This document shows, one piece after another, positions 30,334 to 59,703 of a stretch of DNA of 64,000 nucleotides; the stretch's first letter is position 1; each line of letters begins with the position of its first letter. Location of the stretch: NCBI GenBank assembly GCA_038237515.1, contig JBBRYP010000009.1, forward strand, positions 7,953-71,952. The letters run 5' to 3'. Source of the DNA: Gaiellales bacterium (lineage in GTDB: Bacteria; Actinomycetota; Thermoleophilia; Gaiellales; Gaiellaceae). Made by a program: the position numbers and the translations under genes. The notes under the pieces were generated by a model. That model ran no database searches and was not told where the DNA came from. It worked only from the letters and a program-made list of their open reading frames with translations.

Positions 30334-31614
30334 GTGATGGGGACGCGGATAGACGCTCTGCCGCGCCCACCGGGCGCGGGCGAGCTGGTTCTACGGGGGC
30401 AGCAGCGACGCCTTCGCCTCCTTCCGTTCCTAGGCCCTGCGTTCATCGCCTGCGTCGCGTACATCGATCCGGGCAACTTCGCGACCAACATCGCCGGGGG
30501 CTCGAAGTTCGGGTACACGCTCGTGTGGGTGATCGTCGCCGCCAACCTGATGGCGATGCTCATCCAGTTGCTTTCGGCGAAGCTCGGCATCGCCACCGGG
30601 CAGAACCTGCCCGAGCTCTGCCGCGAGCGCTTCTCGACGCGGACGGCGATGGGTCTCTGGGTTCAGGCGGAGCTCATCGCGATGGCCACCGACCTCGCCG
30701 AGTTCCTCGGGGCCGCGCTCGGGTTCCATCTGCTCCTCGGGATCCCGCTGTTCGCGGCCGCCGTCATCACCGGCGTCGCGGCCTTCGCGATCCTTGCGCT
30801 GCAGCGCTTCGGCTTCCGGCCGTTCGAGGCGGTCATCGCTGGGATCGTCGGGGTCGTCGGCGTCTCCTACGTCGCAGAGCTCTTCTACGCGAAGCCGCCC
30901 TATGCCACCGTCGCGAAGCACGCGTTCGTGCCGGAGTTCAGAGGCCAGGAGTCGGTGCTGCTCGCGGTCGGGATCCTCGGCGCGACGATCATGCCGCACG
31001 TCATCTACCTCCACTCCGCTTTGATGCAGAACCGCGTGGTGCCGGAGAACGACCAGGAGGCGCGGCGGCTGATGCGCTACACGAGGGTCGACGTGGCGAT
31101 CGCCATGTCGCTCGCGGGCTTGATCAACGTCGCCATGCTCGTAGTGGCGGCCAGCGTCTTCTACAAGTCGGGCTTCCTCCACGTCGACTCGCTCGAGGGC
31201 GCCCACCGCACGCTCCAGCGTCTCCTCGGCGGCAGCGCCAAGACCCTGTTCGCGCTCGCCCTCGTCGGGTCGGGCCTCTCCAGCTCGACGGTCGGAACGA
31301 TGGCCGGGCAGGTGGTCATGCAGGGCTTCATCCGGCGCAAGATCCCGGTGTTCGTCCGTCGCCTGGTGACGATGCTACCGGCGTTCGTCGTCATCGGGAT
31401 TGGCGTCGACCCCTCGCGGACGCTCGTCCTCAGCCAGGTCGTCCTCTCCTTCGGGATCCCGTTTGCGCTGATCCCGCTCGTCCTCTTCACCTCGCGGAGG
31501 GACGTCATGGGCGCCCTGGCGAACCACCGCCTGACGACGGCGGTCGCAGTCGTGGTCGCGGCACTGATCTGCGCGCTCAACGTGTTTCTGCTCGCGCAGA
31601 CGTTCGGGCTGTAG
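30334..31614 (+). CDS. mntH: Nramp-family divalent metal (Mn2+) transporter
   Basis: 426 aa. FLGPAFIACVAYIDPGNFATNIAGGSKFGY and ATIMPHVIYLHS. Confidence 0.93.
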   Translation: MMGTRIDALPRPPGAGELVLRGQQRRLRLLPFLGPAFIACVAYIDPGNFATNIAGGSKFGYTLVWVIVAANLMAMLIQLLSAKLGIATGQNLPELCRERFSTRTAMGLWVQAELIAMATDLAEFLGAALGFHLLLGIPLFAAAVITGVAAFAILALQRFGFRPFEAVIAGIVGVVGVSYVAELFYAKPPYATVAKHAFVPEFRGQESVLLAVGILGATIMPHVIYLHSALMQNRVVPENDQEARRLMRYTRVDVAIAMSLAGLINVAMLVVAASVFYKSGFLHVDSLEGAHRTLQRLLGGSAKTLFALALVGSGLSSSTVGTMAGQVVMQGFIRRKIPVFVRRLVTMLPAFVVIGIGVDPSRTLVLSQVVLSFGIPFALIPLVLFTSRRDVMGALANHRLTTAVAVVVAALICALNVFLLAQTFGL

Positions 31615-31670
31615 CCGCTTCGCCTCCGGGTGTCCCGTGCGCCGAGTGCGGCTACCGAGGCCACTGAGTC

Positions 31671-31890
31671 CGACGACGGCGAGGCGGGCGAGGTAAAGAA
31701 CCTCCTCGGCGTTGAAGGACCAGTCATTGGTGTGCATGAGCCGGTAGGCGAGTGCATGTGCACGGAGGGGGCGAAGGGGGGAACTCCGTTCCCCTCTTGG
31801 AGCGGAGGCGAAGCTGCAGCGATAACTCCAACATCCCGTATGGCAGCCGGGGGTCTCGGGGGGCGCGAGCCCCCCGGAAAGCGAGGCGCC
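31671..31890 (+). repeat. Copy A of the ~230-nt structured intergenic repeat (3' end diverged or truncated)
   Basis: Shares ...GAGCCGGTAGGCGAGTGCATGTGCACGGAGGGGGCGAAGGGGGGAACTCCGTTCCCCTCTTGGAGCGGAGGCGAAGCTGCAGCGATAACTCC...GCCGGGGGTCTCGGGGGGCGCGAGCCCCCCGG with the copies at 36775 and 51392. Confidence 0.85.
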
Positions 31891-33089
31891 TACAAATAGC
31901 CCAGCGGATCCACAGCCGACCCGTTGATGCGCACCTCGAAGTGGAGGTGGGGCCCGAAGCAGTGGCCTGTGCAGCCGACATAGCCGAGAACCTGGCCTTG
32001 AGAGACCTGCTGGCCGCTCGAGACGGCGAGGGCGGACTGGTGGCCGTAGGCGGTCGAGATGCCGCCGCCGTGGTCGACCACGACCAGGTTGCCGTAGCCC
32101 CCGAGCCAGCCTGCGTAGACGACGGCGCCGGACGCGGCCGAGTGGATCGGGGTGCCGTACCCGACGCCGATGTCGATGCCCTCGTGCATGCGACCCCAGC
32201 GCCAGCCGAAGGGGCTCGTGATCGGGCCGTTCACCGGCCAGATCAGTCCGGCAGCGGACGGCGGCGCGGACGAGGGAGCCGAAGACGGTGGTGCCGAAGC
32301 CTCGGCTGCACGGATCTTTGCCGCGAGCTGGGCGCTCACCCTGGAGAGCGACTCCGCCTCGGCGACCTCCTCCCGCTCGGCCTTCGTCAGCCCGGCCAGG
32401 GCGCCCTGCTTGCGCTCGCGCTCACGGGCGACGGCGTACTCGCCGGCCAGCAGCCGGTCGCGCACCTCCCGCACCTGCGCCGTTCGCGCCTCGATGACGC
32501 GGGTGGCGGAAGCGACGCCGACGCGCGTACGCCTCGTCGTGAGCCGAGCGATGCGCGCGTCGTCGCGCGCCTGCTCCACCTCGCGCGCGATCTGCTTGTC
32601 CCCCTGTGTCACCAGGCGCAAGAACTCGAGGTCGTCGATCAGCTGCGAGAGGCTGCGCGCGGAGATCAGCACGCCGAGGGTGCCGACCTCGTCGCCTTCG
32701 TACAACTCGATCAGCCGTCGGTCGAGCCGCGCGAGCGCCACCGCGTATTCACGCCGCAGGAACCCGAGACGCTGCGTCTGGAGCTCGAAGAGCGCCGTCA
32801 GGTGGGCGAGACGCTCTTGGTGGAGCTCGAGGTCCTGCTCGAGCGGCGCCAGCCGCGCCTGCGCGCCTCCCACCGCGCCCTCGAATCTGCGAATGCGCGT
32901 CGTCACGGCCGCGATTTCGCCCTTCAACGTCGATTCGCGCGCCTGAAGCGCGGCGATCTTGTCGTGGACGCGCGCGAGCTGCGCGTCGACGTCCACCTTC
33001 CGCTGGGAGGGATTCGTCCCGGCGGCGGGAGCGGCGGCAGCGACGACCGCCAGCACGGCAAGGAGAAGCGAACGGCGCACCCTGACCAC
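31890..33089 (-). CDS. M23 peptidase with N-terminal coiled coil (EnvC-like)
   Basis: C-terminus HEGIDIGVGYGTPIHSAASG...VDHGGGISTAYGH...GPHLHFEV. GTG 33089 or 33080 precedes the signal/TM RRSLLLAVLAVVAAAAPAAG. The longer ORF extending to 33347 overlaps the upstream gene. Confidence 0.85.
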   Translation of the reverse strand: MVRVRRSLLLAVLAVVAAAAPAAGTNPSQRKVDVDAQLARVHDKIAALQARESTLKGEIAAVTTRIRRFEGAVGGAQARLAPLEQDLELHQERLAHLTALFELQTQRLGFLRREYAVALARLDRRLIELYEGDEVGTLGVLISARSLSQLIDDLEFLRLVTQGDKQIAREVEQARDDARIARLTTRRTRVGVASATRVIEARTAQVREVRDRLLAGEYAVARERERKQGALAGLTKAEREEVAEAESLSRVSAQLAAKIRAAEASAPPSSAPSSAPPSAAGLIWPVNGPITSPFGWRWGRMHEGIDIGVGYGTPIHSAASGAVVYAGWLGGYGNLVVVDHGGGISTAYGHQSALAVSSGQQVSQGQVLGYVGCTGHCFGPHLHFEVRINGSAVDPLGYL

Positions 33090-33126
33090 GATTTCGGCGG
33101 CCGGGACAGCGTCCCTGCCGCGGGTG

Positions 33127-33618
33127 CTACTCCGCCTGCGGGATCCCGGGCGCCGGCGCCGGGGGCGTCGCGGGCGGTGGGTACGGCTCGGGAATGTCGG
33201 GCTGCTGCGGCGGCTCGTGCGGGACCGGCGTCGGCTCGGGCACGATCGCCGGCTCCGGAGGCGTCGAGGGCGGCGGGTACGGCTCGGACATGTCGGCCGA
33301 ACCGTACACGCCTCGGCCCGCGCGGGGCTCGAGCGCGGCCAGCGCACCGGCCGCGGCGCGCCGGAGCGGCGTCACGAGCACGCGGTAATCCTCGTCGGAG
33401 ATCTTCCCCGTCCGCTGGTCGAACTCGAGCTCCTTCAGCGCTGCGAGCGCGCGGTCCCGCTCCTCCGCGAGCGCGAGCTGACGCTGCTCCAGCGGCCCCG
33501 GGTCGTCGAGCAGGTCGGCGTCGCGGCGAAGGGCCGGCTCGCGCAGAAAAGGCCGGGCGACGAACAGAACGACTAGGACAGCCAGGACGGCTGCAAGCGC
33601 CAGAGCAGCCGCCGTCAC
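33127..33618 (-). CDS. CcmI/CycH N-terminal-like cytochrome c biogenesis protein with Pro-rich tail
   Basis: GTG 33618 forms a GTGA overlap with the ccmF stop. TM helix, then ALAALKELEFDQRTGKISDEDYRVL, and repeated EPYPPP(S/A)TPP in the tail. Confidence 0.5.
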   Translation of the reverse strand: MTAAALALAAVLAVLVVLFVARPFLREPALRRDADLLDDPGPLEQRQLALAEERDRALAALKELEFDQRTGKISDEDYRVLVTPLRRAAAGALAALEPRAGRGVYGSADMSEPYPPPSTPPEPAIVPEPTPVPHEPPQQPDIPEPYPPPATPPAPAPGIPQAE

Positions 33619-36517: not shown

Positions 36518-36737
36518 GCGAGGGGCGCGATTGAATCGCTTCGCTCCTCCGGGGCTCTCGCCCCCCGAGCCCGCCGGCGACCATGCAGGCGAGAGCAGTT
36601 GGACGCTCCGCCTGCGGCTCCGCTGGATGGGGGACTCGGCGTCCCCCATCACCCCCCGCGGCGCAACTGGACTGGGCCTTCGGCCCGCAGATACCAAGGG
36701 GAGGCTCCCAAAGGCAGCGAATCGAGGGACGATCACC
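36518..36737 (-). repeat. Copy B-left of the structured repeat (most diverged, inverted relative to B-right)
   Basis: Its reverse complement aligns along its full length with 36775-37012 (GGTGAT...TTGGTA...GCCGAAGG...GGGGGAC-GCCGA-GTCCCCC...AGCGGAG...CTCGGGGGGCGAGAGCCCC...GCGATTCAATCGCGCCCCTCGC). Confidence 0.75.
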
Positions 36738-36774
36738 CGGGCTGCCGTGACGGGTGGTGGAGAGGTCAACCGAC

Positions 36775-37012
36775 GGTGATGGAGAGCGTCTGTGCACGGA
36801 GAACCTCATCGGCGAGGATGGAGAACCGTTGGTACGCACGAGCCGGAAGGCGAGTTGCATGTGCCCGGAGGGGGCGAAGGGGGGAACTCCGTTCCCCCCT
36901 TGGAGCGGAGGCGAAGCCGCAGCGATAACTCCTCGAAGGGTGTAGGCAGCCGGGGGGTCTCGGGGGGCGGGAGCCCCCCGGAAGAGCGGAGCGCTCAATT
37001 CGCGCCCCTCGC
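36775..37012 (+). repeat. Copy B-right of the structured repeat (full length)
   Basis: Near-identical over about 235 nt to the reverse complement of 51392-51625. Hairpins GGGGGGAAC-TCC-GTTCCCCCC, CCGGGGGGTCTC...GGGAGCCCCCCGG and GCGC-TCAATTC-GCGC. Confidence 0.9.
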
Positions 37013-37120
37013 AAACCCGCCCCTCGCCCGCCCCGCCTCTCGCCGAGCCGGGTCGCACGCGTTGCCGTCCGGAAAGCCGCCCGCTCCGGGACGGAGTCCC
37101 CTACGAGCTATCGTCGCCGC

Positions 37121-51305: not shown

Positions 51306-51391
51306 CCCGATCGACGGTACGGACGCCGTCGGACGCCGTCCTTGCGGGACGCAGCGAGTCCGAGCCGACGCGCGGCGAGGGCCAGGGGAAA

Positions 51392-51625
51392 GCGAGGGGC
51401 GAGTGAATCGCTGCGCTTTGCCGGGGGGCTCTCGCCCCCCGAGACCCCCGGCCGCCTACACCCTTCGAGGAGTTATCGCTACGGCTTCGCCTCCGCTCCA
51501 AGGGGGGAACGGGGTTCCCCCCTTCGCCCCCTCCGGACACGTGCACTCGCCTGCCGGCTCGTGCATACCAACCAGTCCTCCAAGAACGCCGAGAGGTTCT
51601 CTGGGCACAGATGCTCTCCATCACC
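51392..51625 (-). repeat. Copy C of the structured repeat (full length), 87 nt upstream of and co-oriented with recJ
   Basis: The reverse complement begins GGTGATGGAGAGCATCTGTGCCCAGAGAACCTC and ends GCGATTCACTCGCCCCTCGC, colinear with 36775-37012. Confidence 0.9.
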
Positions 51626-51688
51626 GCGCGCGGGTCGCACTCGTTGCGCTCCGCATCCCCGCCCGCGGAAAGCGAAGACTCGTACGGG

Positions 51689-59307: not shown

Positions 59308-59678
59308 GACCGATCAGGTTATTCAGAGGTTGACGCGGGAGGCGCTACGAGCTAAGGGCCTGTCCACAAAGTGAGCCAGGGCGCCTGACAGACGTCACGC
59401 GCCTCGATCCGGCGTCCTCGGTCGCGCAGATATGCCTGCATATCGACGCTCCCTGCGTCCTTGCCTCAAGACGCGTGCCGCCTGTCATCCACCGTGGCCA
59501 CTTTCCGGACAGGCCCTAACCGTGCCGCGCGACGAACAAGAGGCTCATGAGGAAAGCAGGGGGGTTCTCTCCGCTCGCTTGAGTCGCCACCGCATATCCA
59601 GTCGCGGGCGGAGCCGGGCTCCGCCCGGCGGGAGCCCACGGTGCAGTGGCCAGTACGCCGCGCAGAAGAAGGGGGCCA

Positions 59679-59703
59679 ACGGGGGAAACCTGGTTTCCCC
59701 CGT
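59679..59703 (-). terminator. Candidate terminator hairpin after pdxS
   Basis: ACGGGGGAAACC-AGG-TTTCCCCCGT begins 3 nt after the pdxS stop and is followed by TGGCCCCCTTCTTCTG (a weak U tract). Confidence 0.45.

Follow-up and report, generated by a model that had tools for sequence, protein, structure and literature searches.

Results

The GC-rich sequence between mntH and a convergent M23 peptidase gene of this Gaiellales bacterium from soil is likely an old, 3'-truncated copy (copy A) of a non-autonomous, non-coding, modular interspersed repeat, the family of which would have spread within a Gaiellales lineage by transposition in trans. The family is best read as a MITE/BIME-like mosaic repeat that would be mobilised in trans. 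The window analysed, 64,000 nt in its whole length, is C9:7953-71952 of the draft genome G000, and positions without a contig or locus label refer to it.

The mntH/M23 spacer and copy A

The original prediction placed the repeat between mntH and an M23 peptidase gene, and Pfam matches support both. The mntH gene (30334-31614, + strand) encodes an Nramp-family divalent metal transporter (PF01566, E 3.9e-128), and the peptidase gene (31890-33347, - strand) belongs to Peptidase_M23 (PF01551, E 6.2e-35). The mntH gene converges on the spacer, and its orthologues at 93%, 77%, and 75% identity show the same synteny. Between the two stop codons lie 275 nt (31615-31889), and the repeat runs right up to the peptidase stop codon (31890-31892). 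At its C-terminus the peptidase is intact and native, its ..VDPLGYL* end being identical in the orthologues of two relatives (G014 and G007). As listed, the peptidase ORF has 485 amino acids and its N-terminus reaches about 90 residues beyond those of two orthologues (395 and 398 amino acids); a direct repeat of 50 nt (33151-33200 and 33247-33296, 88%) lies within the extension (33080-33347, - strand). Translation probably starts further downstream than listed.

A structured GC-rich repeat with a diverged 5' end and a truncation at the peptidase stop had been predicted to fill this spacer, and repeat search, blastn, and a covariance model bore this out; the core string quoted in the prediction is present in the sequence as well. 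In the repeat search of the window, 31753-31829 paired with 36856-36932 (96%), and 31705-31829 together with 31842-31880 paired with an inverted copy at 51418-51593. With copy B as the query, blastn covered 31697-31889 (+ strand). The covariance model of the core, R1, matched at 31727-31890 over its full length (1-164) with 178 bits and an E-value of 1e-42, and found exactly three further copies in the window, the number that had been predicted. The core of copy A, of about 165 nt, is complete and 86.7% identical to the consensus of the F subfamily, copy A being among the most diverged F copies.

The initial part of the spacer (31615-31671, + strand) was compared by eye with the 5' flanks of copy C and of the copy at C29:27218. 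It may faintly resemble the inverted tail terminus (GCGCCGAGTGCGGCTACC versus GCGCAACGAGTGCGACC), an uncertain likeness seen by eye and without statistical support. Then follows a worn 5' module (31672-31726, + strand; consensus GACGGTGATGGAGAGCGTCTGTGCCCAGAGAACCTCCTCGGCGTT..), recognised from 5'-end alignments, which is the diverged 5' end of the prediction; homology as reported by blastn and nhmmer begins within it, at 31695-31697. The core (31727-31889, + strand), as delimited by R1, contains the hairpins H1-H5 and the conserved GGAAAGCGAGGCGC. In the model structure, H1 (31733-31756, + strand) reads TGCAT-GA-GCC GGTA GGC-GA-GTGCA, and its pairs covary across genomes. The segment at 31764-31798 (+ strand) comprises the GGAGGGGGC motif and the 11-bp hairpin H2 (AAGGGGGGAAC TCC GTTCCCCTCTT), and at 31799-31829 (+ strand) the H4 stem, GGAG..CTCC, surrounds the mini-hairpin H3, GGC-GAA-GCT, in which a compensatory change from G-C to C-G separates the subfamilies. 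The linker at 31830-31848 (+ strand) corresponds to the most variable alignment columns (110-125) and is in copy A a hybrid of the two main linker variants. H5 (31858-31875, + strand), GGGGGG C-GCGA-G CCCCCC, has a GNRA-type loop, and the H5 module is nearly identical in genome G072. The 3' tail of about 100 nt that full copies carry (..ATTCACTCGCCCCTCGC..GGTCGGACTCGTTGCGCTCCGCAAAGCCGCC) is absent from copy A, and similarity stops at 31889, the base before the peptidase stop, just where the prediction had it cut off.

Copies and modules of the family

Copy B, of the F subfamily, has its core at 36829-36995 (+ strand, 179.5 bits with R1) and extends over about 36774-37049 with its 5' module and tail. 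Head to head with it stands a core of the P subfamily (36535-36697, - strand, 63 bits with R1), which is about 73% identical to F. The core of copy C, again of the F subfamily, lies at 51407-51571 (- strand, 186 bits with R1), and the full span of about 51335-51665 includes a tail and, on the 5' side, an inverted tail terminus.

Across the 3.9-Mb, 100-contig draft, nhmmer gave 47 hits at 31 loci, a similarity far beyond chance. The family thus extends well beyond the window, as both BLASTN and nhmmer against the genome showed, and a repeat confined to the window is not what was found. Fifteen of the 31 loci are situated at contig ends or within about 60 nt of them, indicating that the repeat breaks the assembly; the true copy number is probably larger than counted here.

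Anchored flank alignments and coverage profiles were used to map the modules. A 5' module (CGGTGATGGAGAGCGTCTGTGCCCAGAGAACCTCCTCGGCG..) is present in about 18 copies, the core of about 165 nt (GTTGGTATGCAC ... GGAAAGCGAAGCGAT) in about 43, and the tail of about 100 nt, with GCCCCTCGC-like words and a sharp end at GGTCGGACTCGTTGCGCTCCGCAAAGCCGCC, in about 25. Units vary between 165 and 330 nt, a full unit being about 330 nt, and many copies share the same sharp 3' boundary. On their 5' side, copy C and C29:27218 carry an inverted tail terminus of about 30 nt, which is not recognisable in most single copies, copy A included. Copies are single, tandem, or head to head, and truncated and internally deleted derivatives are present. 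At nine loci a P arm and an F arm are joined head to head into a symmetric composite about 560-600 nt long, with tails at both outer ends; the same arrangement was seen in G072. In the tandem arrays found at several loci, core and tail are repeated with an identical junction, ..AAAGCCG|GGTTGGTATGCA. The H2 module of about 35 nt also occurs solo, at 59672-59703 of the window and, in the orthologous spacer of a close relative, at L110:3517-3557. The former (+ strand), GGGGCC-AACGGGGGAAAC CTG GTTTCCCCCGT, matches model positions 41-72 with 19.6 bits, and solo hairpins like it were seen in many genomes of the bacterial family.

No reading frame is conserved between copies and indels shift the frame, so the element is regarded as non-coding. 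Every copy lies between genes, the orientation to the neighbours being mixed, and none interrupts a recognisable gene; three apparent gene overlaps were over-extended ORFs of a crude gene caller. No protein family or ORF recurs beside the copies in G000.

Selection on the hairpins

The five hairpins were set by hand, since the consensus that RNAalifold derived from a plain MAFFT alignment was poor. Among the F copies of this genome, variability is four times lower in paired columns than in unpaired ones (0.025 vs 0.11), the sites that vary being positions in loops and in one linker. In H5, for instance, the loop differs between copies (GAGA, GTGA, GGGA, GCGA, GAAA) on a fixed stem. In the cross-genome alignment, which comprises 39 matches in genomes other than G000, 93.6% of the cells are paired, compared with 69% in shuffles and at most 60% with slid partners, and 33 of the 35 pairs show double changes, all counted on a model-fitted alignment that inflates covariation. 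Compensatory differences between the F and P subfamilies in H1, H2, H3, and H4 were checked by hand. Owing to the effect size and these hand-checked differences, and despite a count that leans on the model, the alignments argue convincingly for selection on the hairpin stems.

Stems kept in this way could also belong to a multi-copy structured non-coding RNA, either a gene or a cis-acting module, that needs the fold of the G-rich strand and for which any mobility would be a secondary trait or mediated by RNA. The loop of H5 conforms to G-N-R-A in every case, with a variable N, covariation is strong, G-U pairs outnumber A-C pairs 37 to 10 in the cross-genome alignment, and copy A folds with z = -4.3 on the + strand compared with -2.2 on the - strand. 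However, the 37:10 ratio comes from a fitted alignment in which the scoring favours G-U, and within this genome the two kinds of pair number 10 and 7, with no strand bias. Moreover, GNA and GNRA loops such as GCGAAGC are very stable in DNA too. Neither an Rfam match nor a promoter-like site was found at the element. At gathering scores, Rfam 15 reported only a tRNA in the whole window, and a permissive scan of copy B gave only chance-level matches (E 0.24 or worse). The orientation of the copies to genes is random, many copies are truncated, tandem, or inverted, and related genomes differ in copy number from 0 to more than 30, all of which speaks against an RNA of this kind. We therefore consider it quite unlikely. 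A further reading, that of a mobile structured RNA module, has the conserved multi-hairpin fold of the G-rich strand, with its GNRA-type loops and its stems kept by compensation across genera, act as RNA and the head-to-head pairs as divergent transcription units; examples would be a non-autonomous element with RNA-mediated mobility, or a portable cassette for RNA stability or termination that the host selects. This, too, we hold to be improbable. On neither strand is H2 or H5 followed by a U-tract, and the sole match of a terminator scan is a weak 5-bp stem (31718-31701).

Filled and empty sites

Mobility is indicated by the nuoF-nuoG junction. In G000 the two genes are separated by a gap of about 320 nt (L112:599-916, on contig C69) that holds a copy of the repeat co-oriented with the operon, whereas in G001, a genome of the same genus, and in G002, G003, and G008 they overlap or are 15-47 nt apart, without an insert. 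As the site is filled here and empty in the same-genus genome, the family is mobile, and the element is tolerated within the essential nuo operon. The nuoF-nuoG insert has an outer inverted repeat of its own (CTCCATTCA .. TGAGTGGAG), unlike the usual termini. No target-site duplication was visible at copies B and C or at this insert; the junctions could be placed only approximately, as the available empty sites come from diverged genomes.

The mntH/M23 synteny is kept in three relatives, all with different spacers. In GCA_038237865, the MntH of which is 93% identical, the 219-nt spacer cannot be aligned with copy A, and both gene ends align up to their stops. Of the element, this spacer holds only the short module of GGAGGGGGC plus hairpin (L110:3517-3557), abutting the M23 stop codon. 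Judged by its sequence, this module may resemble a terminator of the M23 gene that lacks a U-tract. The spacers of the more distant G014 and G007, 136 and 243 nt long, contain other hairpins and no element. A weak match of R1 in the G007 spacer (16.8 bits) was dismissed, as it looks like a generic string of hairpins. The dissimilar spacers of the relatives suggest that the mntH/M23 spacer turns over quickly through the exchange of hairpin modules, and that copy A is a lineage-specific arrival.

The presence of an H2-like hairpin already in the orthologous spacer of a close relative, the weak G007 match, and the tandem arrays with identical junctions could be explained without any mobility, if terminator hairpins that already existed had given rise to the copies through segmental duplication, unequal recombination, and gene conversion. 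Such processes would have to account for 31 dispersed loci with unrelated flanks, for a clean insert between the translationally coupled nuoF and nuoG at a site that is empty in four relatives, and for a sharp 3' boundary common to many copies. This makes a non-mobile origin highly improbable.

Distribution in other genomes

No match to the element was obtained by blastn against 60 relatives. Diverged copies of full length were detected by the covariance model in a few genomes belonging to the same bacterial family. Of these, G072 has at least 14 diverged copies, including head-to-head pairs, and G001 three, the other genomes having one or few. In a 300-genome sample of the class, none was found outside G000 at E 1e-5. 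The exact pattern of the H5 module occurred in only two Gaiellales MAGs among 185,579 species genomes, and a metagenome scan added nothing on distribution. We found no description of the element in the literature.

Several other matches were discarded. Model matches of about 143 nt in various genomes were false positives in the coding region of nuoF (CGKC..PCREG motif). The region of this iron-sulfur motif (ATGCACGAGTCGTGCGGCAAGTGCACG.., L112:266-292) agrees at 34 of 44 nt (about 77%) with H1 and the GGAGGGG stretch, a likeness that is probably due to chance and at most an unprovable origin. The only exact match of a 21-mer of the core was a chance one within a coding region of a Thermoanaerobaculia MAG, the exact-word matches of the tail terminus among the 185,579 species genomes were scattered and likewise due to chance, and the 24-mer GGAGCGGAGGCGAAGCCGCAGCGA matched two unrelated metagenome contigs exactly. 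One of these two contigs (L049:7686-7887) carries the 24-mer in an 89-nt tandem repeat of three units. Orthology of the two arm types between genera was dropped as well, the arms clustering by genome in the tree.

Search for a mobilising enzyme

According to the Rfam and insertion-sequence comparisons, the element matches neither an Rfam family nor an IS end, either of which would have spoken against the original prediction. No autonomous full-length insertion sequence with the termini of the element was found in G000, where the draft assembly may hide one. An ISL3-type IS that lies between two copies (L033:1077-2452, on contig C29) was rejected as a source: its terminal repeats (GGCTCTTC..) are unrelated, and its transposase is frameshifted. 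A TnpB guide scaffold or IS200/IS605 derivative (PATE) was likewise rejected, PF07282 being absent from G000, G001, G072, G080, and G082 with the controls matched.

RAYT-like Y1_Tnp genes were present in all five of these genomes, with four in G000 and at least one in each of the other four, which were the other element-bearing genomes tested. The four genes of G000, all diverged Y1/HUH genes, are situated at C8:61135-61461 (L084), C8:40988-41560, C12:13712-14170, and C13:47060-47700. Their presence would fit a repeat of the REP/BIME or REPIN type, in which single-stranded DNA hairpins are recognised by an HUH/Y1 (RAYT-like) transposase and spread without terminal repeats or target duplications. 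The stems kept by compensatory change, the mosaic, tandem, and inverted arrangements, the solo hairpin module of about 35 nt, and the lack of a definable target duplication are all in line with this. On the other hand, Y1 genes of such type are common, so that their presence is weak evidence, and the unit of the element is ten times the length of a REP. No significant similarity to the element was seen in the flanks of the four genes either, and different short palindromic repeats of their own border at least two of the genes; a RAYT association was rejected on these grounds. The gene at C8:61135-61461 is bordered on both sides by a palindromic REP of about 34 nt, GACATGTCTGGGGGCCTGACCCCCAGACATGTC, that recurs at five or more other sites, and that at C8:40988-41560 has on its right side CCTCTGAGG-type repeats, which recur on contigs C58, C15, and C10. 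Judging from their sequences, the REP systems of the Y1 genes are separate from, and unrelated to, the element studied here. A REP/BIME- or REPIN-type element is thus an unlikely reading.

Discussion

We prefer a MITE/BIME-like mosaic repeat mobilised in trans, and the history of copy A can be pictured accordingly as follows. A full unit, consisting of the 5' module, the five-hairpin core of about 165 nt, and the tail of about 100 nt with its sharp ..CTCCGCAAAGCCGCC end, would be recognised through its hairpins by the mobilising machinery or by the host, as single-stranded DNA or as RNA. At this locus the element would have replaced the ancestral mntH/M23 spacer. A later deletion may have removed the tail and gone no further than the peptidase stop codon, beyond which it would have damaged the gene. 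Two features do not sit easily with this reading: most single copies are without a recognisable left terminal repeat, which is against classical MITE anatomy, and conserved internal stems are not expected of a DDE-type MITE.

In its present position, the element would passively be transcribed together with both convergent genes, at their ends. Hairpin H5 immediately follows the peptidase stop and H1-H5 follow mntH; these G+C-rich hairpins could then form 3'-end or terminator-like structures without a U-tract, and copy A probably supplies 3'-end hairpins to both genes. Any role as a terminator or stabiliser would be purely conjectural; the U-tract is absent, and the co-oriented copy within the nuo operon argues against efficient termination in that orientation. 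The original prediction assigned the repeat to the 3' UTR of mntH, a position that copy A may well have. The reverse complement of copy A lies equally directly behind the peptidase stop, and the mixed orientations of the copies together with the one within the nuo operon indicate that the family is not a dedicated mntH 3'-UTR element. The sequence of copy A should consequently not be taken for a locus-specific regulator of manganese transport.

The repeat accounts for the unusual size of the mntH/M23 spacer, for about 30 further long intergenic regions of this genome, and for many of its contig breaks. Undescribed and lineage-restricted, it forms a repeat family of the Gaiellales, which are poorly studied and mostly uncultured and in the genomes of which convergent-gene spacers turn over fast through the exchange of hairpin modules. 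With its stems under selection, the family is a usable case for asking whether such hairpins are recognised as DNA or as RNA.

Among known systems, the MITEs, such as Correia/NEMIS of Neisseria and ERIC/IRU of enterobacteria, are likewise small, non-coding, multi-copy, intergenic, and hairpin-folding, with presence or absence differing between relatives and, as in the fullest copies here, with inverted termini. Correia/NEMIS and ERIC/IRU are also co-transcribed with neighbouring genes, which by analogy may hold for the present element. In contrast to MITEs, neither a target-site duplication nor a parent IS was found here, a left terminal repeat is missing from most copies, which are single arms, and the units of 330-600 nt have internal stems kept by compensation and form tandems. 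The BOX element of Streptococcus pneumoniae (boxA-boxB(n)-boxC) shares a modular build, with a middle module that may form a tandem array flanked by different 5' and 3' modules, a stable predicted structure, and an intergenic location. There is, however, no sequence relation to BOX, the modules are several times longer here, and head-to-head composites of two arms are common. Like the REP/BIME and REPIN sequences that go with RAYTs in E. coli and Pseudomonas, the element forms G+C-rich mosaics of hairpins in direct and inverted order, is strictly extragenic, shows structure-dependent conservation, and occurs in a genome with RAYT-like Y1 genes; yet these genes are flanked here by other, short REPs, and the unit is about ten times longer. 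Because several defining tests of each of these families failed or were left open, we do not place the element in any named family and regard it as an undescribed member of the bacterial interspersed structured repeats.
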